Source of the DNA: an uncultured Ignavibacteria bacterium
Lineage (GTDB): Bacteria; Bacteroidota; Ignavibacteria; Tepidaquicellales; OLB5
NCBI GenBank assembly: GCA_947084945.1
Contig: CAMTUP010000009.1
Span: forward strand, 205,882 to 269,881
Direction: 5' to 3'
DNA: 64,000 nt
Position numbers and translations under genes: made by a program. Under the pieces are notes generated by a model, which was not told where the DNA came from, searched no databases, and saw only the letters and a list, made by a program, of their open reading frames with translations. The stretch's first letter is position 1. Each line of letters starts with the position of its first letter. Shown in pieces: positions 14,504-62,810 of the stretch.

Positions 14504-14908
14504 AACTCACCTTACGCATTCCCGAGCTGTGCATGCGACAGGCAGGCAAGCCGGAATCACTGGTCTTGTCATTCCTGCGCCGTGCCTGCGGAAGGCAGGA
14601 AGGCAGGAATCTTTAGAAATTAATCCACAATTATTAATATAAAACAATTTTCATGTATAGCTTTTGCGTTTATATTCTCGATAGTAAAAAGATGGAAACG
14701 AGATTGGAATATCTAGCTTATAGAAGAAAAGAATCTTGAATAGAAAGACCTGTATTATGATATTGGCGGGGAAGAATTTAATACAGAAATGAAAAATCAA
14801 CATCTTAAAATCAAAAACAAGATTCCTGCCTTCGCCCTAAAAACAGGGCAGACAGGAATGACAAAAAACCTCCCGCAGACACGGAGTGGGTATGCGTAAG
14901 ATGAATTT
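14504..14908. repeat. composite palindromic (MITE-like) element, AACTCACCTTACGCA family
   Basis: The left arm AACTCACCTTACGCATTCCCGAGCTGTG (14504-14531) faces a degenerate inverted right arm CACGGAGTGGGTATGCGTAAGATGAATTT (14880-14908). The interior holds further hairpin units, including 14814-14868. Confidence 0.7.
14814..14868. repeat. 55-nt hairpin unit (GATTCCTGCC..GCCCTAAAAACAGGGC..GACAGGAATG)
   Basis: Base-for-base identical to 34937-34991. An inverted copy with 1 mismatch lies at 48632-48671. Confidence 0.9.
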
Positions 14909-15034: not shown

Positions 15035-16837
15035 ATGAATAAACTAAAATTTACTGCCCTCTTGGCAATATTGGTTATTTCAATTATTATCACAGGCTGT
15101 GGTGGTAAAACCACACAGCAGAAAACCGATAACCAAAATCAGTCAAATGATATATCTGCTGTTGATACAACAGGTGCTGTTACGGGCGACTGGCTAATCA
15201 TCAGAGGAATGTCCGACCCAGAAAAATTAAACCCAATCGTTTCTAACGATGCAAGTGCATCTGAAATATGTTCTTATATTTTTGAGTATCTGCTTGACCA
15301 GAATAAAGAAACATATGAGTTGGTACCAAGGCTTGCTGCATTACCTGAAGTTTCTGCCGATAATCTCAGTTATACATTTACAATTAACAAAAATGCAAAG
15401 TTTTCAGACGGTAAACCTGTTACTGCAAATGATGTTATATTTACACTTAAATTAATAAAGATACCATTTATAGATGCTGCTGCCACAAGAAACTATTTTG
15501 AAATGGTTGATAGAGCCGAAATAGCAGATAACGATCCCCAGAAAGTTAAATTCATTTTAACAAAGCCTAACTGGAGAGGAGTTTATACTTTAGGACTATT
15601 CAGCATACTCCCCAAACATATACTTGACCCAAATAATATTACAGATAAGTTTCAATGGGAAGAATTCAAGGATATGAGAATAGCTTCACAAAATCCTGAA
15701 ATGCAAAAGTTTGCTGATTTTATTAACTCACAGGAAGTATCCAGACAAGCAAAATACTTAGTTGGCTCGGGTCCATATATGTTTGAAAAATGGGATACCG
15801 GAGCAGGTGTAACAATTGTTAGAAATAAGAATTATTGGGGTAATCAGAATTTAGCTAATTATCCACAGAAAATTATTTTCAAGACTATACAGGATAACTC
15901 TGCAGCATTAGTTGCAGCAAAGAATAAAGAAGTTGATGTTATGTCCGTTATCAAGCCTGCAGACTTCTATAAAGATATTCAAAACCCTGAACAGTTTAAT
16001 CTTATTAAAGCCAGACCTCTTGAGCCTTCATATGCTTATTTAGCATGGAACCAATTAAATCCTCTATTTCAGGATAAAAAAGTTAGGCTTGCTTTATCTT
16101 ATCTGGTTGATAGAAAAATCATTATTGATAAAATTTTGTTTGGCGATGCAGTACCCATACAATCACCTATATTTTACAAAAACACAAAGTTGTTAAATGA
16201 AAATCTTGCTGAAATACCTTTCGATCCTGAAAAAGCTAAAATACTATTGGAAGAAGCAGGGTGGAAAGATTCTGATGGTAATGGTGTTCTTGATAAAGTT
16301 ATTGCTGGTAAGAAAATGGACTTCAAGTTTACTTTCCTAATCAATACAAACCCAGTGAGGAAACAAATTTTATTGGTAATTGTTGATGCATTAAAGAAAG
16401 TTGGAATACGCGCAGATGTTCAGGAACTTGAATGGTCTGTTTATCTTGATAAAACCAAGAAACATGAATTTGAAGCAACATATTCAGGTTGGACATCTCC
16501 AACTTTACCACCGGATCCATATCAAATCTGGCATTCATCACAGTCAGAAGGTGAAGGAAGCAATTACATCAGTTTCAATAACAAGCTCAATGATAGTCTT
16601 ATAGTAGAATTCAGAAACGAAATGGATGAAAACAAAAGAGTTAATATCATTAAACAGTGGCAGCAGCTTATTTATGATGAGCAGCCTTACACTTTTTTGT
16701 GGAGCGGAAGAGCCCGTTACATCTACGACAAGAGATTTAAAAACACAAGATGGTATAACATTCAGCCAAGTCCTTCATATAATGAATGGTGGGTGCCTGT
16801 AGCACAGCAGAAATTTACACAGGATAAAAATAATTAA
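15035..16837 (+). CDS. ABC transporter substrate-binding lipoprotein, family 5, paralog 2
   Basis: Has a lipobox (IIITGCGG) and is 600 aa. Shares blocks with paralog 1 (GSGPYxFEKWDTG, AAKNKExD, EAGWKDxDGxGVLDK). Confidence 0.85.
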   Translation: MNKLKFTALLAILVISIIITGCGGKTTQQKTDNQNQSNDISAVDTTGAVTGDWLIIRGMSDPEKLNPIVSNDASASEICSYIFEYLLDQNKETYELVPRLAALPEVSADNLSYTFTINKNAKFSDGKPVTANDVIFTLKLIKIPFIDAAATRNYFEMVDRAEIADNDPQKVKFILTKPNWRGVYTLGLFSILPKHILDPNNITDKFQWEEFKDMRIASQNPEMQKFADFINSQEVSRQAKYLVGSGPYMFEKWDTGAGVTIVRNKNYWGNQNLANYPQKIIFKTIQDNSAALVAAKNKEVDVMSVIKPADFYKDIQNPEQFNLIKARPLEPSYAYLAWNQLNPLFQDKKVRLALSYLVDRKIIIDKILFGDAVPIQSPIFYKNTKLLNENLAEIPFDPEKAKILLEEAGWKDSDGNGVLDKVIAGKKMDFKFTFLINTNPVRKQILLVIVDALKKVGIRADVQELEWSVYLDKTKKHEFEATYSGWTSPTLPPDPYQIWHSSQSEGEGSNYISFNNKLNDSLIVEFRNEMDENKRVNIIKQWQQLIYDEQPYTFLWSGRARYIYDKRFKNTRWYNIQPSPSYNEWWVPVAQQKFTQDKNN

Positions 16838-16865
16838 ACTGTAACAACTAAACTTGTAAGAAAGA

Positions 16866-17876
16866 ATGTCACAGTACATTTTAAAAAGAATACTTTTATT
16901 CATACCAACGCTGATAGCAATTACTATCATAACGTTTACAATTTCCAGGCTTGCACCCGGTGACCCCACAGAATTAAAAGTTGGCGTTAGCGGTGAGAAC
17001 ATGAAAGCTGATGAAAAGAGCCAGATGAACCAGCAGGCTAAGGACTATTATAAACAAAAATGGGGATTAGATAAACCGGTCTATTTGCAGTATTTTATAT
17101 GGCTTGGAAATATGGCAACAGGAGATTTTGGCAATTCATTTGTAGATAACCGTCCTGTAATGGATAAAATAATGGAAAGAATTCCTGTTACTGCGCCTAT
17201 TACACTGATGGTAATTGCATTAAGTTATCTTATTGCAATTCCCATAGGAATATTTTCTGCTGCAAGGCAATATAGTGTTGCAGATAGGTTTTCAACATTT
17301 ATGCTTTTTGTGTTTTATTCACTTCCATCTTTCTGGGTTGCTACTATGGCAATAGTATTTTTGGCAAATGTTGAATACATCAAGATATTCCCAACATCAG
17401 GGCTTTATACATTAGGGTCAGATAATTGGAGTTTTTTTGAAAGGTTATGGGATCGTGCTTACCATCTAATTCTTCCTGTATCTATCAGTTCACTTGCAAG
17501 TTTTGCTTTTTTATCAAGACAGATGAGAGGCAGTATGCTTGAGGTCATAAGGCAGGATTACGTAAGAACCGCCCGTGCTAAAGGTTTAACTGAAAGAACG
17601 GTAGTAATGAAACATGCCTTAAGAAATTCTTTGATACCTATTATCACTCTTTTGGGAGGAATTCTTCCAAGCCTTGTTGGCGGATCTGTTATAATAGAAA
17701 CAATATTCAGCATACCCGGTATTGGGCAACTTGCTTTCCAGGCATTAATTGCCAGAGATTACCCACTGATAATGGCAGAGCTTGTTCTTGCCGCAGTATT
17801 AACAATGTTTGGCTTATTGCTTGTTGATATTTTATATGCAATAGTAGATCCTAGAATTGCTTTTTCAAAGAAATAA
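16866..17876 (+). CDS. ABC transporter permease (DppB/OppB type)
   Basis: Multi-TM protein with YVRTARAKGLTERTVVMKHALRNSLIP, the conserved EAA-region motif. Confidence 0.9.
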   Translation: MSQYILKRILLFIPTLIAITIITFTISRLAPGDPTELKVGVSGENMKADEKSQMNQQAKDYYKQKWGLDKPVYLQYFIWLGNMATGDFGNSFVDNRPVMDKIMERIPVTAPITLMVIALSYLIAIPIGIFSAARQYSVADRFSTFMLFVFYSLPSFWVATMAIVFLANVEYIKIFPTSGLYTLGSDNWSFFERLWDRAYHLILPVSISSLASFAFLSRQMRGSMLEVIRQDYVRTARAKGLTERTVVMKHALRNSLIPIITLLGGILPSLVGGSVIIETIFSIPGIGQLAFQALIARDYPLIMAELVLAAVLTMFGLLLVDILYAIVDPRIAFSKK

Positions 17877-22560: not shown

Positions 22561-22619
22561 TTATATTCAGGATTTTCACATTTCCCCTTTCTGTGTAATA
22601 AACAGAAAAAAACAAAACC

Positions 22620-23140
22620 TTTATTCACGAATTACTCGAAGGAAAGCACACGAATAACACGAAATTAATATTCTATGTTCTAGCAGAGTCTCTTTATGCC
22701 TATATCTTGAGTGTTTAAAAAATGCTAATGTGAGACCTTTAGGTAAGGGGACTCTGCGTTAAAATATAAAAACACCGCAGAGTCCAATCCCGCTAAGCAA
22801 CTAATCCGCCGTGGCGGACAGAAAAGAGCGGGACTGCTGGAAAGCGCAGAAAGCGGAGACTCTGCGGGTACGAAATATTCATACAATTTGTTGCATTCGT
22901 GTAATACAGCCTGACTTTCGCTTTATGAAAGTTGTTTATTCTTTCCTTCACTTTTTGAACATAGGGGCAGCCATCCCGCCTAAAGGTCTAACACTTGCGG
23001 GATCACTCTAATAAAATTGCTCCAAAGGAGCTCCTTCGGAGTTAGATGTTTAAACTGCTCGGATGAGTTCCGTTGGAAAAAACCAGTCTTAACTGAGAAA
23101 CCAGTCTAAGAGGTTTTAAGCTCAAGTGACGAAAACGGGA
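22620..23140. repeat. non-coding block of nested inverted repeats
   Basis: Inverted-repeat pairs: TGAGACCTTTAGG (22730) with CCTAAAGGTCT (22979); GCAGAGTCTC (22683) with GAGACTCTGC (22856); GGACTCTGCG..CGCAGAGTCC (22749-22784); CCCGCT..AGCGGG; TCCGCCGTGGCGGA; CTCCAAAGGAGCTCCTTCGGAG (23020). Confidence 0.8.
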
Positions 23141-23148
23141 TACACGAT

Positions 23149-34936: not shown

Positions 34937-34991
34937 AAAACAAGATTCCTGCCTTCGCCCTAAAAACAGGGCAGACAGGAATGACAAAAAA
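34937..34991. repeat. 55-nt hairpin unit, identical to 14814-14868
   Basis: Read base by base. Its 3' end supplies the spurious ATG (34981) of the track ORF. Confidence 0.9.
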
Positions 34992-36556: not shown

Positions 36557-36612
36557 GGCAAAAGGGATCCGTCAAAGCCGGATTTCAATCTGCGGCGCAG
36601 ATTTCAAAAAGT
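36557..36612. repeat. left inverted repeat bracketing the four-helix-bundle gene
   Basis: AAAAGGGATCCGTCAAAGCCGGATTTCAATCTGCGGCGCAGATTTCAAAAAGT is the reverse complement of 37131-37184, apart from a central 6-7 nt and 1 other base. Confidence 0.85.
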
Positions 36613-36724
36613 AAAAAGGCAAACAAAGCAAAAGTAAAAAGGCAGAAGGCAAAAATAGTTATTAAAATCTTATAAGAAAAGAAAAAAACAAAACTATTTT
36701 TAATAAATAAAAAATAAATTAAGT

Positions 36725-37081
36725 ATGTTGAAACTTAACCACAAAAAATTAGCAGTATGGGAAAAGAGTTTAAACTTAATCAGAGAAGTTTACAAATTAA
36801 CTAAAATGCTTCCTAAAGAAGAACAATATATTTTAACTTCACAATTAAGAAGAGCAGCTGTTTCTGTAGCATCTAACATTGCTGAAGGTGCATCAAGAAA
36901 ATTAACAATTGAAAGAAGAAGGTTTTACCAGATATCAAGATCATCTTCAGTCGAAATTGATACACAAATTGAGATCTGTAAGTTGCTTGAATACTTCAAT
37001 GAAAGTGATCTAAAGGATCTGGATATTGAACTCAATAATGTTTTCGCGCTTTTAACCGCTATGATCAATAACACTAAGTAA
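36725..37081 (+). CDS. four-helix-bundle protein (23S rRNA intervening-sequence protein / Avd-like family)
   Basis: TSQLRRAAVSVASNIAEGASR is the family motif. 118 aa. Confidence 0.8.
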   Translation: MLKLNHKKLAVWEKSLNLIREVYKLTKMLPKEEQYILTSQLRRAAVSVASNIAEGASRKLTIERRRFYQISRSSSVEIDTQIEICKLLEYFNESDLKDLDIELNNVFALLTAMINNTK

Positions 37082-37130
37082 AATTTGAAATATTCGACAA
37101 TAAATTCAATTATAATCATTTTTGCTAATT

Positions 37131-37184
37131 ACTTTTTGAAATCTGCGACAGTAGATTGAAATCCGGCTTTGACGGATGCCTTTT
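37131..37184. repeat. right inverted repeat bracketing the four-helix-bundle gene
   Basis: ACTTTTTGAAATCTGCGACAGTAGATTGAAATCCGGCTTTGACGGATGCCTTTT. Confidence 0.85.
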
Positions 37185-39763: not shown

Positions 39764-40213
39764 ATGGCAACAATTTTAGAAATTGATGGTAATATATTTA
39801 ATAGCAAAGCTCAAACTATTGTTAACACAGTTAATTGTGATGGCGTTATGGGTAAGGGTATTGCTTTGGAATATAAAAAAAGATTCCCAGATATGTTTAA
39901 TAATTATGTTAATTTATGCAAAAATAAGTCAATAAAGCCAGGTATTTTATATTTATATACAAAATCTAATCCCTGGATATTAAATTTCCCTACTAAATTA
40001 CATTGGAGATACAAATCGAAAATTGAATATATAGAACTTGGTTTAAAGAAATTTTCAGTTGAATACAAAAGGAAGAATATTAAATCTATTGCATTTCCTA
40101 AACTTGGGACAATGAATGGAGGTTTAGATTGGGAAGATGTTAAAGTGATTATGTATAAATATCTTCTTCCACTAAAAGACCTTGAAGTAGAAATTTATAA
40201 CTATACTAAATAA
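39764..40213 (+). CDS. macro-domain protein (ADP-ribose binding/hydrolase fold)
   Basis: Has GNIFNSKAQTIVNTVNCDGVMGKGIALEYKKRFP and IAFPKLGTMNGGL. Confidence 0.7.
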   Translation: MATILEIDGNIFNSKAQTIVNTVNCDGVMGKGIALEYKKRFPDMFNNYVNLCKNKSIKPGILYLYTKSNPWILNFPTKLHWRYKSKIEYIELGLKKFSVEYKRKNIKSIAFPKLGTMNGGLDWEDVKVIMYKYLLPLKDLEVEIYNYTK

Positions 40214-40497
40214 TTTTCTGGTTTTAGCAATGATATTTCAGGGCTACTTCTTTCGTTGCGCTCAATAAGTCAGGAAAGCCCTGGATTTATGGTATTTCTA
40301 AAGCCCCGACATAAAGAGTTTGTCTCAAAAATCTTAATTTTGAAAAATTTATGTTAAAATTATTAAAGATTCCTGCTTTCGCAGGAATGACAAAGTACTT
40401 TTGAGACTGCCTTTAAATGTCGGGGTTAATTCATAAATTGAAAATCTGGTTTTTTCTAAAGACCTTAACGGCAGACAGTAAACGGTCAACTTGTGTA
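40214..40497. repeat. partial composite palindromic element (inverted orientation), TTACTCAAGTTGACCG family
   Basis: The reverse complement is collinear with 48535-48878. It lacks the far terminal repeat and begins at the base after the macro gene stop. Confidence 0.8.
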
Positions 40498-40590
40498 AAT
40501 TAAATTTTATTCCGAGGGCAATACAAATTAATATTACATTTAAAAAAGCTTGTTTAACTAAGAATGCTTAAAAATTTCTTAGAAAAAATA

Positions 40591-44731: not shown

Positions 44732-44734
44732 TGT

Positions 44735-44842
44735 TACTTATTCACCTTACGCATATAACAACAGACAGGAATGTCTGTGTTACTAACTCACCTTCTGCCC
44801 TAAAACAGGGCAGACGTTAACGTTGAGTAAGGTGAGTTACTA
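44735..44842. repeat. palindromic element, AACTCACCTT...AAGGTGAGTT family
   Basis: Near-identical in layout to 56018-56118, with inner hairpins ACAGACAGGAATGTCTGT and CTGCCCTAAAACAGGGCAG. Confidence 0.8.
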
Positions 44843-44950
44843 ATTCAGCAACGAATTAACAATACTTTATGAAATTAGTTGTTGACACACATAATGTTTT
44901 ATGTTATATTTGTTGCAACAAATAATGTTAGAACACATTAAATAAGAGAA

Positions 44951-46837: not shown

Positions 46838-46978
46838 AAACTCACCTTACGCATTCCACTCAGCGCCTGAAGCAGGTCGAAGAACTGCGCTGGCATGTCA
46901 TGAATCCCTTGTTTTTGTAGCGGGAATGACAAAAATCTTGCAGTTGGCACAGCTCGAGAATTTTGCGTAAGGTCAATT
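46838..46978. repeat. palindromic element, AACTCACCTTACGCA family
   Basis: The left arm AACTCACCTTACGCATTCC faces the right arm TTTTGCGTAAGGTCAATT. CACAGCTCGAGAAT matches the inverted CGAGCTGTG of 14523-14531. Confidence 0.75.
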
Positions 46979-48395: not shown

Positions 48396-48534
48396 TAATA
48401 TTTGCAATTCCGTTTTTAGTCTTCAGAGTTGGACATTTAATAAATGCTATTATGATGGCTGGCATGGTACCAATTCCGGGCTGAATATTTAACAGGGAGT
48501 CAAACAAGCCCGCTGCCTAAGAAAAGTTTTATTT

Positions 48535-49000
48535 TTAACTTACTCAAGTTGACCGTTTACTGTCTGAAAAACCAGATTTTCAATTTATGAATTAACTCCG
48601 ACATTTAGAGGCTGTCTCAAAAGTGCTTTGTCATTCCTGTCTGCCCTGTTTTTAGGGCGAAAGCAGGAATCTTTAATAATTTTAAAATAAATTTTTCAAA
48701 ATAAAGATTTTTGAGACAACCTCTTTATGTTGGGGGTTTAGAAATACCATAAATCCAGGGCTTTCCTGACTTATTGAGCGTAGCGCCACGCCTTAAAAAC
48801 CACGAAGTGGGAGGAAGGAAAGTGGATTTTGACCTTTAGGAAGTAGCCCTGAAATATCATTGCTAAAACCAGAAAATTACTCCAAAGGAGTCCCTTCGGG
48901 ATAAAGTTACTTATTATTGATTTGAAACTCGTAGTTATTGTAAAAATGTGAGACCTTTAGGCAAGAGTTTGTTATAATAACAGTCAACTTGAGTAACTTA
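48535..49000. repeat. full-length composite palindromic (MITE-like) element, about 466 bp
   Basis: Terminal inverted repeats TAACTTACTCAAGTTGAC / GTCAACTTGAGTAACTTA. At least four levels of nested hairpins inside. Confidence 0.85.
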
Positions 49001-49066
49001 TAAAGCGAAGGCAGTAATTCCTTCGCTTTTCCCAAAGGGATGGATACCCAAACTTTTTAAAATATT

Positions 49067-49924
49067 ATGAAAATACCTGATAACACAAAAATACAAAGCG
49101 TTGATCTTAAAGTAAAAGATCTGAAAACTTCATTGAATTTTTATTCACATTTAATGGGTTTCAAAATAATTTCACAAAACGAAACCTCAGCAATGCTCTC
49201 AGCAAATAGAAGTTTGCCGTATATACTACAGCTTCATGAGGATAAAAATTCCATACATAAACCATACGGCTCTACCGGACTTTTCCATATAGCTATCAGT
49301 CTACCAAACAGAAAAGAGCTTGCAAGGGTATTTTTAAGAATGTTTGAGAATAAAGTAAAGTTCCAGGGATTTTCTGATCACCTTGTGAGTGAAGCAGTTT
49401 ACTTAGAAGACCCCGATGAAAATGGAGTTGAATTGTATTGTGATAGACCCCGTGAAGAATGGCAGTATAAAATGGGACAAGTGGAAATGGCAACACTTCC
49501 GCTTAACCTGAACATACTTACAAATGAACTGGATGATAGAAATGTATGGAATGGCATTCATCCGTATACCGATATTGGGCATATACACTTGAGTGTTTCG
49601 GATATTAAAAAAGCACAAAATTTTTACAGCATACTTCTTGGTCTGAATGTAACAAACTCAACTTATCCCGGAGCCATGTTCTTTTCAGCCGGTGGTTACC
49701 ACCATCATATTGGTGCTAATGTATGATCATCAAAAAACGGCTCACCTGCAATAAATAAAAATGCTGTAGGATTGTTGAATTATACTATCCAAGTTCCTGA
49801 TGAAGAATACATGAAAGTTGTTCAAACCCGCGCAACAGAATCTGAATTGCTGATTGAACCTTTCAATGGTAAAAATCTTGTAATTAGCGATATGGATAGA
49901 AACAAAATAACTCTTATTTTATAA
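49067..49924 (+). pseudogene. two-domain VOC/glyoxalase-type (catechol dioxygenase-like) gene interrupted by an in-frame TGA
   Basis: The frame continues for 65 more codons after the TGA at 49724-49726. Joined length is 285 aa. The stop sits in GGYHHHIGANV*SS, where related proteins, as I recall, have ...HH.G.N.W. Confidence 0.6.
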
Positions 49925-56017: not shown

Positions 56018-56118
56018 TAATAAATCAAATTACGCATATACCATGATTCACAGACAGGAATATCTGTGTTACTAACTCACCTTGTGCCCTAAAACAGGGC
56101 AGACAGTAACGTTGCGTA
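56018..56118. repeat. palindromic element, AACTCACCTT...AAGGTGAGTT family
   Basis: Collinear with 44735-44842. Lies between the two tRNA genes. Confidence 0.8.
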
Positions 56119-56402
56119 AGGTGAGTTAATAAATCAAATTATTTAGGATTTGCGGCAGTACGTGATACCATTTCCGCCACCCAAGCTTTTATATAAAAGA
56201 ACCTTTCAAACATAAACAAATATGTTTTAAAATGCAAGAACCCTTTTAAAATAATATAGTTACAGTATTATCCTAAAGAATAAGTTTAATCATTGACTTA
56301 TTCATAGGGTTTCTGAGTATTTAATGCAATAAAATAGAAAAAGGTTGCATGATAATCAATACTCTAAACTAACTATTATACAGCAAAATAAAATAAAAAC
56401 TG

Positions 56403-60525: not shown

Positions 60526-60529
60526 AGAC

Positions 60530-60571
60530 GTGAAACGTGAAACGTGAAATGTGAAATGTGAAATGTGTGAT
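60530..60571. repeat. 6 x heptamer GTGAAAC x2, GTGAAAT x3, GTGTGAT
   Basis: In perfect phase, beginning 4 nt after the TAA stop (60523-60525). Confidence 0.9.
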
Positions 60572-60706
60572 GATAAATATTATAGGATAAATCAAAGATA
60601 TGTTGAACGAAGTGAAATCTGGTTTTTCAGATTAGTAAAATAATAATTTGAACTTTTTTTCCTTTTGAGAGGAAAGGATTTAAATTAAATTGTAAAGATA
60701 TTCAAC

Positions 60707-60738
60707 CCCCGTTCTGATCAATCAGAACGGGGTTTTTT
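60707..60738 (+). terminator. rho-independent terminator
   Basis: CCCCGTTCTGAT-CA-ATCAGAACGGGG (12-bp arms) followed by TTTTTTAT. Confidence 0.8.
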
Positions 60739-60748
60739 ATTTTAGAAT

Positions 60749-60990
60749 TACTTACTCAAGTTGACCGTTTACTTTCTGAAAAACCAGATTTTCAATTTAT
60801 GAATTAACCCTGACATTTATGTCAGGGGTTTAGAAATACCATAGATCCATTGCTTTAGCCCTGTAATATCATTGCTAAATCCAGAAAGTAATAAAGTTAC
60901 TTATTACTGAGTTGAAACTTATAGCTACTGTAAAAATGTGAGACCTTTAGGCAAGACTTTGTTAGAATAACGGTCAACTTGAGTTACTTA
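60749..60990. repeat. short (about 242 bp) member of the TTACTCAAGTTGACCG composite-element family
   Basis: Both terminal repeats are present. It is collinear with 48535-49000 but lacks that element's internal inserts. CCCTGACATTTATGTCAGGG is uninterrupted at 60808-60828. Confidence 0.85.
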
Positions 60991-61563
60991 ATAATTTGTT
61001 AAATTTGAGGATAATGAATATTCGTGCCACGAATATTTACATCTAAAATATTCAATGGAAGTATAAACTTCAATATACATTCTTAAAAATATATCTAGTT
61101 TCGTGGAACGAATATCTTTATTTTTTAAAATCAAAAACCAAACCCCCGAAACTGATTTAAGCAGTATATTAAGTTTCGTTCAATTTAAATTTTATGAACA
61201 TTGAAGTTAAGTTTCCCCCCTTTTAAAAAGCAAAGGGGGGATTTTCAAAATTGATGAATATAAACATATCTAATTTCGTGGAACAAATAAAAGTGGAGAT
61301 TTCATAGAAGATAATCGCCTGACTTGTTTTCTTTGACTCGTTTTTGAGTTCAGTTTACACCAAAATAGTAAATATAGTAAATACAATTAATTTGCAAATT
61401 TACGAAATATTTTAAATTTAACTAAATTCGATTGGTGGCACGAGTAATCCCGAGTTCTCGGGACACCTGCAACATTTTCCCTCAATTTTCCGTCCTAATT
61501 ACATTAATTGTTAATTCATAATTGTTTAATTATATTTACAGGTCATTTAATTAAATACACGAC

Positions 61564-62565: not shown

Positions 62566-62810
62566 AAAGTTTACTTTTCTCGGAAACGCTGTTTCGCGCA
62601 AAACGGAGCTTTGCTGAAAAGTAGCTGCTAAACTGGAGTTTAGCAGCGAGGGAGCATGAAGAGTTTTGTCGCGATAATTATACTTTTGGATTATCAAATG
62701 TCTATATATATCACATACGTAACATGAGTTAATAATTAATCGTTTCTCCGAAGGAGTCCTTTGGACAAAGCCAGTCCTTTAAAATTGGATTGGCTTTTTA
62801 ATTTCAACAA

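Follow-up and report, generated by a model that had tools for sequence, protein, structure and literature searches.

How does a non-coding stretch of 466 bp come to hold hairpins enclosed within other hairpins, and what kind of element is it? The question is raised by positions 48535-49000 of a 64-kb stretch of contig CAMTUP010000009.1 from an uncultured Ignavibacteria bacterium (hereafter, the window). The window is AT-rich (~34% G+C), and its proteins find their closest matches among proteins of uncultured Ignavibacteria. The locus lies in a 671-nt gap (48396-49066) with a YceI-family gene on one side and a VOC/glyoxalase gene on the other. The original prediction, made from the letters alone, described an element with terminal inverted repeats and inverted pairs enclosing one another, with two further copies in the window, and took it for a family of mobile hairpins or for a structured-RNA scaffold; the strings that it quoted are all present at, or within 1 nt of, the positions given for them. 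We propose that the locus is probably a nested mobile element of the type known as MITE (miniature inverted-repeat transposable element), moved by a transposase acting in trans, whose hairpins would serve as landing sites for other elements and to which small modules would have been added.

Three copies of a basic element are found in the window. Copy A, the composite in question, is 451 bp long (48543-48993, + strand). Copy B is the basic element itself, 229 bp at 60755-60983 on the + strand (60748-60990 with its flanks). Copy C, on the − strand, is inverted and truncated; the earlier description of a partial inverted copy with an empty hairpin at 40368-40389 was right, but its coordinates have to be corrected to 40211-40495, or 40211-40502 with the flank. 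The break point of C falls at the exact position at which A carries a 22-nt twin hairpin, to which we return below. A three-way MAFFT alignment, in which A was taken as 48535-49000, B as 60749-60990 and C as 40201-40510 in reverse complement, extends along all of the length that the copies have in common, with similarity at 89.9-93.0%: A and B are 90.5% identical over 242 nt, A and C 93.0% over 286 nt, and B and C 89.9% over 148 nt. Self-BLAST of the window gave E-values of 1e-26 to 1e-66 between copies, so that these repeats are far beyond chance. The nested inverted pairs listed in the original prediction were recovered as the predicted stems of minimum-free-energy folds, at -66.1 kcal/mol for A (z = -4.5) and -34.3 kcal/mol for B (z = -5.6), values that none of the shuffles equalled. 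The truncated copy C also supplies the TAA stop codon (40211-40213) of a Macro-domain open reading frame (ORF) that ends there (39764-40213).

The ends of the element are those of a MITE. What had been read as an 18-bp terminal inverted repeat is really a 13-bp inverted repeat, CTCAAGTTGACCG, followed by a 7-bp direct repeat, and the pair of ends can be written CTCAAGTTGACCG...CGGTCAACTTGAG. The two ends match at 13/13 positions in B and at 12/13 in A (48543-48555, CTCAAGTTGACCG, against 48981-48993), and C has a single intact end (40483-40495, 12/13). Beyond these ends, copy A is flanked by TAACTTA on the left (48536-48542) and by the identical 7-mer on the right (48994-49000), which we take as a target-site duplication, and copy B by TTACTTA (60748-60754 and 60984-60990). 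Both pairs are perfect, as is the TTACTAA pair of a second composite family at 44761; the flank of C at its intact end reads TAATTTA, which is TAAATTA on the + strand of the window. Since the flanking 7-mers are almost palindromic, they are easily misread as an extension of the inverted repeat; in copy B they match at 7/7 positions as a direct repeat versus 4/7 as an inverted one. The elements, of 229, 451 and 116 bp (the last being the insert described below), have no coding capacity, stand in gaps of 671, 1038 and 377 nt between ORFs of at least 70 aa, and fall within the roughly 50-500 bp by which MITEs are defined. Copies A and B thus show every structural mark of a MITE bar a known parent element.

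Empty sites provide evidence of movement. The orthologous spacers of relatives at 84-93% protein identity were fetched by means of homologues of the VOC protein (contigs are designated by L numbers). In L008 (91% protein identity), the site reads AAATTT-TAACATA-TAAAGCGAAGGCAG, with a single 7-mer, while the filled site of the window reads TTTT-TAACTTA-[451 bp]-TAACTTA-TAAAGCGAAGGCAG. The element is also missing from this site in L003, L004 and L007, and the terminator-like hairpin AAAGCGAAGGCAG...CCTTCGCTTT is conserved directly to the right of it. Absence from the orthologous site in four relatives, together with the inverted repeats and the direct duplication, bears out the idea that the element is mobile. 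Two Logan short-read contigs with identical flanking proteins, L001 and L002, stop inside the element, 35 nt into its left end and 56 nt before its right end; since assemblers break at repeats, the element is repeated in the source genome.

The nesting can be read by comparing the copies. In B, the hairpin CCCTGACATTTATGTCAGGG, that is, CCCTGACA-TTTA-TGTCAGGG, is intact at 60808-60827, as had been noticed. In A, the same host hairpin, CTCCGACA...TGTTGGGG (48596-48735, + strand), is split by an insert that has TTTA on both sides (48604-48607 and 48724-48727). This insert, which we call insert 1 (48608-48723, + strand), is a second-level, MITE-like element of 116 bp, with inverted ends GAGGCTGTCTCAAAAG / ATTTTTGAGACAACCTC (GAGGCTGTCTCAAAA/TTTTGAGACAACCTC, matched at 14/15 positions) and a duplication of TTTA. 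Copy C carries it at the same position in a 98-bp form (40316-40413), and B has none; B reads ACA-TTTA-TGT, and A and C read ACA-TTTA-[116/98 bp, inverted ends]-TTTA-TGT. The insert falls precisely within the four loop nucleotides of the CCCTGACA/TGTCAGGG hairpin, and compensatory or wobble changes preserve the 8-bp stem of this hairpin in all three copies. Since insert 1 occupies the same position in A and C, at different loci and beside different 7-mers, the composite would have moved after it was formed, and A and C appear to be a subfamily that spread after the nesting event.

Within insert 1 lies a further unit, hp47, a 47-nt hairpin ATTCCTG...CAGGAAT with an inner GCCCT/AGGGC stem (48627-48673, + strand). 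It also exists alone, in two 55-nt solo copies on the − strand (14814-14868, with the hp47 part at 14819-14865, and 34937-34991, with the hp47 part at 34942-34988), which are identical to each other and 98% identical to hp47 of copy A. An 18-nt mini-hairpin segment (48639-48656, + strand), with no duplication around it, is present in A and in both solo copies and missing from C, where the hp47 position is taken by a plain hairpin, GATTCCTGCTTTCGCAGGAATG (40368-40389), of 8-bp stem and 4-nt loop. The filled form (18 extra nt, GCCCT...AGGGC) is therefore seen in three copies versus one for the empty form and, since both solo copies are filled, the difference may be an insertion in A or a deletion in C. 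Thus, of the successive insertion stages first envisaged, the entry of one palindromic unit into another stands, but a simple time series does not, given that A and C form a subfamily and that the innermost step may be a deletion. A related mini-hairpin, GTCTGCCCTGTTTTAGGGCAG, is found in a different host at 44795 and 56084. With hp47 at 14819 and 34942 and variants of the twin hairpin at 23020 and 62746, the units of the nest do occur separately, as they should if they are modules.

Copy A contains additional modules. Its variable region (48764-48840, + strand) consists of a part common to A and C only (48764-48780) and of a 60-nt module, GCCACGCCTTAAAAACCACGAAGTGGGAGGAAGG..., found only in A (48781-48840, + strand). 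Relatives of the 60-nt module occur in L003 (9896-9927) and L096, in which its mini-hairpin CCAC-GAA-GTGG is changed to CCGC-GTA-GCGG, a compensatory change. The twin hairpin, CTCC-AAA-GGAG / TCCC-TTC-GGGA (22 nt, 48880-48901, + strand), joins two 11-nt hairpins end to end, each nearly the mirror image of the other, and it is an exact addition with respect to copy B, without duplication. Solo variants are found at 23020-23041 on the + strand (CTCC-AAA-GGAG / CTCC-TTC-GGAG, with a compensatory stem change) and at 62746-62766 on the − strand (GTCC-AAA-GGAC / TCC-TTC-GGAG); the latter adjoins a conserved terminator-like hairpin and is missing from the relative L135. Both AATGTGAGACCTTTAGG and the twin hairpin had been considered modules peculiar to the long copy. 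This holds for the twin hairpin, with its variants at 23020 and 62746, but not for AATGTGAGACCTTTAGG: its site at 60935 is inside copy B, so it belongs to the basic element. The loop targeting that had been proposed describes insert 1, in its TTTA loop, and the twin hairpin in the T-loops of tRNAs, but as a general rule it is weakly supported, the twin hairpin and the 60-nt module of copy A both lying outside hairpin loops.

The twin hairpin is found well beyond the window. A scan of metagenome contigs with the pattern CTCCRAAGGAGNYCCTTCGGR found it in at least 120 contigs, and there was no match in 2.9 million viral contigs. The counts that follow, in this paragraph and the next, are from among the matches listed, which represent 112-117 distinct contexts. 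Conservation extends to positions that the pattern leaves unspecified: 85% of contexts have T at position 11, and in 72% the unit is followed by A. The two free stem positions also covary (C-G 80, T-A 19, C-A 13, T-G 5; Fisher p = 2e-9). The matches are thus shown to be a real family. The flanks prefer TTN before the unit and ANAA after it, the left flanks being variable, and flanking stems of at least 5 bp surround it in 10% of 115 contexts versus 3% of controls. No recurrent gene stands next to the 120 loci. According to a crude ORF model, the twin hairpin lies downstream of genes in the same direction in 24 cases and in the opposite direction in 19, a mixture that argues against a simple terminator role. 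Save for single matches in L096 and L107, the other modules of the window are missing from these loci.

About one-seventh of the contexts are the T arm of a tRNA-like sequence, GGGATTC[22 nt]GAACCC. At least five contigs pair an intact tRNA gene with an incomplete copy, 16-170 nt away, of that gene's 3′ part, and it is the incomplete copy that carries the twin hairpin: L043 (Arg), L027 (Arg), L050 (Ser), L075 (Pro) and L004 (Leu; 16700-17026). The partial copies, which in some cases are in tandem, differ from the intact genes by exactly 22 nt at TTC^GAA of the T-loop, with no duplication. In other words, the twin hairpin is present in copy A and not in B, and in the partial tRNA copies and not in the adjacent intact genes. 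Its orientation in L075 is opposite to that in the other tRNA copies. The same layout is seen in L130 (Thr), in which the partial copy has diverged, and in L116 (3808-3903) a complete tRNA-Glu(CTC) gene bears the insert and is given 51 bits over 96 nt by the Rfam tRNA model. In L075, a high-G+C contig, the flanking MiaA is closest to proteins of metagenome-assembled genomes of Ignavibacteria or Bacteroidota. Since the window and L004 belong to Ignavibacteria and the MiaA of L075 is Ignavibacteria- or Bacteroidota-like, it is likely that the twin hairpin is spread across the Ignavibacteria phylum, with its presence verified in the window, L004 and L075 only.

How could such a composite arise? 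It is tempting to propose the following pathway. The 229-bp basic unit would be inserted by a transposase encoded elsewhere in the genome, choosing AT-rich, nearly palindromic 7-mers (TWAYTWA) and duplicating those 7 bp; for DNA transposons, target-site motifs of a palindromic kind are common (PMC2577343). The hairpins inside the basic element would then be preferred landing sites for other small elements, and insertion sequences are known from published work to use palindromic repeats as hot spots (PMC1525189). The 116-bp element with ends GAGGCTGTCTCAAAAG would have entered the TTTA loop of the 8-bp hairpin, duplicating TTTA and bringing along the 47-nt hairpin unit that also exists alone. 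The composite would have remained mobile, reaching two loci (A and C) with different flanking 7-mers, and composites may still be spreading. In addition, hairpin modules of 18-22 nt and one 60-nt module would have been added without duplication.

Several observations weigh against this pathway. Neither the window nor the fetched loci yielded an autonomous insertion sequence bounded by these inverted repeats. A 24-mer common to all three copies, CCAGATTTTCAATTTATGAATTAA, had no exact match in 185,579 species genomes (one genome per GTDB species) or in JGI metagenomes. The census is based on the three copies within the 64-kb window, and an empty site has been demonstrated for copy A only; for copy B it was sought in L135, L136 and L137, with no clean junction, the whole 1038-nt spacer being novel. 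The small modules have neither duplications nor the signature of inverted repeats plus duplication, so a classical transposase does not explain them. Finally, the 7-mers of different copies are very much alike (TAACTTA, TTACTTA, TAATTTA, TTACTAA), which also fits a site-specific recombinase with a 7-bp crossover.

The last point suggests an alternative in which small integrative elements are moved by a tyrosine-type, site-specific recombinase and the 7-mers are crossover regions rather than duplications. After excision as a circle, the element would bear GTCAACTTGAG-TAACTTA-CTCAAGTTGAC, a site of 11-7-11 layout comparable with loxP, FRT and dif. The classical core layout of tyrosine recombinases is a 7-bp spacer between inverted arms, and the arrangement at this locus would match it; the near identity of the 7-mers of independent copies and the finding of the twin hairpin in tRNA T-loops, beside partial tRNA duplications like those that integrases leave, point the same way. 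Nevertheless, we consider this unlikely, since the empty target in L008 and L004 lacks arms like CTCAAGTTGAC, no recombinase gene was found among the ORFs of the window that were scanned, and the 7-mers differ at one or two positions between copies while being identical within a copy, as duplications would be. Single-strand transposition of hairpins must also be weighed, either that of repetitive extragenic palindromes (REPs) and REPINs via the REP-associated tyrosine transposase, RAYT, or that of IS200/IS605-type elements via a Y1 HUH transposase; enzymes of these kinds recognize hairpins. REPs are GC-rich palindromes of 20-40 nt, most of them marked by a GTAG or CGTC tag at one end (PMC3733652). 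Like members of the REP/REPIN-RAYT systems (PMC3116915, PMC2817692, PMC3733652), the units studied here are short palindromic intergenic repeats, often composite; they are rich in hairpins with compensatory changes, the 18-22-nt modules enter without duplication, as the products of such enzymes do, and the twin hairpin is a pair of abutting near-mirror hairpins. However, as printed, hp47, the mini-hairpin and the twin hairpin have no visible GTAG/CGTC tag, no dedicated search for tags having been run, and no gene for Y1 or RAYT turned up among the window ORFs scanned, nor any recurrent gene at the twin-hairpin loci listed. Moreover, the larger units, unlike REPINs, have inverted repeats plus duplications, which are foreign to the mechanism: IS200/IS605-type elements have neither, and are characterized by subterminal hairpins and by insertion 3′ of a fixed tetranucleotide, whereas the 229-bp and 116-bp elements have both. 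The 22-nt module shares with the IS200/IS605 type the absence of duplication, but its left flanks vary among the matches listed. Single-strand transposition is therefore quite unlikely to account for the locus as a whole, though it may apply to the tiny modules.

The second alternative of the original prediction, a structured-RNA scaffold, here taken as a family of non-coding RNA genes whose peripheral loops admit variable inserts, could call upon the strong predicted folds, with the z values given above, and upon the CCCTGACA/TGTCAGGG stem kept in three copies by compensatory or wobble changes. Strong folding, however, is expected of any inverted-repeat element, and promoter-like sites are not enriched in this one. 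No Rfam family is matched at gathering score, presence among genomes is patchy, the orthologous site being empty in relatives at 84-93% protein identity, one copy is truncated, both orientations relative to the neighbouring genes occur, and inserts are found at several positions. An RNA gene is thus very unlikely, and this part of the prediction found no support. Least probable, in our opinion, is a mosaic of repeats already in place that came to differ by gene conversion and deletion among themselves, as in clusters of bacterial interspersed mosaic elements (BIMEs) and NIMEs, rather than by successive insertions. In its favor, three of the four copies have the filled form at the 18-nt difference, which makes the empty state of C a possible deletion, and C is truncated exactly where A has the twin hairpin. 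But the TTTA duplication at the 116-bp insert and the 7-bp duplications are signatures of insertion, and five independent comparisons of tRNA copies show the twin hairpin as an addition of exactly 22 nt; a mosaic is possible for the innermost difference only.

The nested-MITE reading, then, requires an enzyme, and the search for one gave no candidate in the window. As had been claimed for the 64 kb, no transposase or integrase is visible: domains of these, or of RAYT, were not found in the 40 ORFs scanned against Pfam, 8 of which had no Pfam match at all, nor in Pfam annotations computed beforehand for the syntenic genes of 40.6-60.5 kb. In BLASTN, copy A had no match among plasmids and phages. 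The only matches of the window in Rfam 15 at gathering score are three tRNAs; within 48396-49066, the best score is 26.8 bits versus a gathering score of 80, and the E-value mode returned chance-level matches to plant long-hairpin miRNA precursors. A scan of the species genomes for the mini-hairpin, GTCTGCCCTGTTTT(N)AGGGC, gave six matches in unrelated taxa and in coding-looking sequence, near a rough estimate of chance, and these were discarded. Together with the absence of the 24-mer, these results make the larger units look specific to this lineage. No named family matches the element.

The closest known relatives in kind are the bacterial MITEs, such as Nezha of Anabaena and Nostoc, Chunjie of Geobacter and the Correia elements of Neisseria (PMC3184786). 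Like them, the units described here are short (about 100-450 bp), non-coding, intergenic and multi-copy, with inverted and direct repeats and with filled and empty sites. They differ in having no similarity to the records searched and no parent insertion sequence found, in a 7-bp duplication at a nearly palindromic, AT-rich 7-mer, and in a nesting that is four levels deep. The way in which the 116-bp element occupies a 4-nt hairpin loop (8-bp stem) and is flanked by a 4-bp duplication resembles that of insertion sequences that target palindromes: IS1397 in the palindromic units of BIMEs, and ISPsy8, ISPa11 and ISPpu9/10 in REPs (PMC1525189; PMC3116915). Here, though, the guest is itself a miniature element that encodes nothing, and its host hairpin belongs to a MITE and not to a REP. 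We conclude that the composite represents a new family, unusually deeply nested, within a known kind of element. In plants, nested MITEs are commonplace; bacterial cases are poorly documented, and in the literature searched, the phrase appeared only in plant and fungal papers, with no description from bacteria, and no paper on MITEs of Ignavibacteria or Ignavibacteriota was found. The locus at 48535-49000 illustrates them cleanly, with copies that can be aligned, three stages and an empty site. In practical terms, such repeats break short-read assemblies of Ignavibacteria, as seen in the Logan contigs, and inflate intergenic spacers.

The part most deserving of follow-up is the twin hairpin with its T-loop target. 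Its behavior recalls the small dispersed repeats (SDRs) of heterocyst-forming cyanobacteria, the subject of a paper cited in PMC3116915 and PMC2884548 (Elhai et al. 2008, Genome Res 18:1484). As reportedly described by Elhai et al., they are about 21-27 nt long, in some cases form hairpins, and lie in intergenic regions as well as inside larger repeats. They are said to be apparently mobile, to be patchily present at otherwise matching sequences and to co-occur with tandem arrays of heptamers. The likeness is one of behavior only, both being small, dispersed, found inside larger repeats and patchy; the phylum and the sequence are different, as are the paired, abutting 4-bp hairpins and the recurrent TTC^GAA target in T-loops. 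In the literature searched, the 22-mer was met only as unrelated primers, and no T-loop insertions of this kind were found. Tentatively, and with considerable doubt, we suggest that the 18-22-nt modules, above all the twin hairpin CTCC-RAA-GGAG / YCCC-TTC-GGGR, might be mobile units in their own right. They would insert without duplication and in either orientation, homing to the centers of short palindromes (TTC^GAA); this would bring them into the T-loop DNA of tRNA genes, where they would persist only if the gene copy was a spare one; and they would have spread through Ignavibacteriota by a mechanism not yet described at such a size, the composite at 48535-49000 being one product of a phylum-wide ecosystem of micro-elements. 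How repeats of ~20 nt spread has been a standing question since the cyanobacterial SDRs were described. A defined TTC^GAA target, intact-tRNA controls on the same contig, covariation and a wide distribution in metagenomes make this question testable with the twin hairpin.

The window holds other structures of related kinds. The second composite family (44761-44847, + strand; second copy at 56050-56136) consists of a hairpin, ACAGACAGGAATGTCTGT, followed by a 52-nt element, CTCACCTT...AAGGTGAG, which contains the mini-hairpin and has the 7-bp repeat TTACTAA on either side. In L004 (15297-15325), the host hairpin ACAGACAGGAATGTCTGT is present without the 52-nt element. Three genes have the motif AACTCACCTTACGCA or a variant of it downstream of their stop codons, at a distance of about 30 nt at most (14504-14518, 46839-46853 and 44733-44747), and the 52-nt element (44788-44839 and 56077-56128) has the reverse complement of this motif as its right arm.

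Hairpins and repeats also accumulate in several spacers. The one that holds copy B (60526-61563) measures 1038 nt versus 110-137 nt in relatives, and another (62566-62810) measures 245 nt versus 68 nt; both are filled with hairpins and short repeats, such as TTCGTGSMACGAATA three times, and only the promoter-proximal 40 nt and the terminator-like hairpin are conserved. A 588-nt spacer (22561-23148) is dense in GC-rich hairpins, including AATGTGAGACCTTTAGG (22727), an inverted variant of it (22979-22995) and the twin-hairpin variant at 23020, and is possibly another composite element. Heptamer tandem arrays occur at 2009-2119 (TAACCTG, 16 times) and 60528-60567 (ACGTGAA, 5.7 times), and short tandem arrays adjoin the twin hairpin in the metagenome loci L099, L124, L049 and L092 as well. 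At 36560-37184, the gene of a PF05635 four-helix protein, of the 23S-rRNA-intervening-sequence type (36725-37081), is bracketed by 56-nt inverted repeats (36560-36614 / 37129-37184, 93% complementary), an arrangement that looks like a small cassette. Lastly, the VOC/glyoxalase gene to the right of copy A (49067 to about 49921) has an in-frame TGA at 49724-49726, where its homologues have Trp. The frame past the TGA is 90% identical to the 285-aa homologue P0002, and the same 219-aa product has been recorded from another assembly; the TGA marks either a nonsense pseudogene or readthrough.

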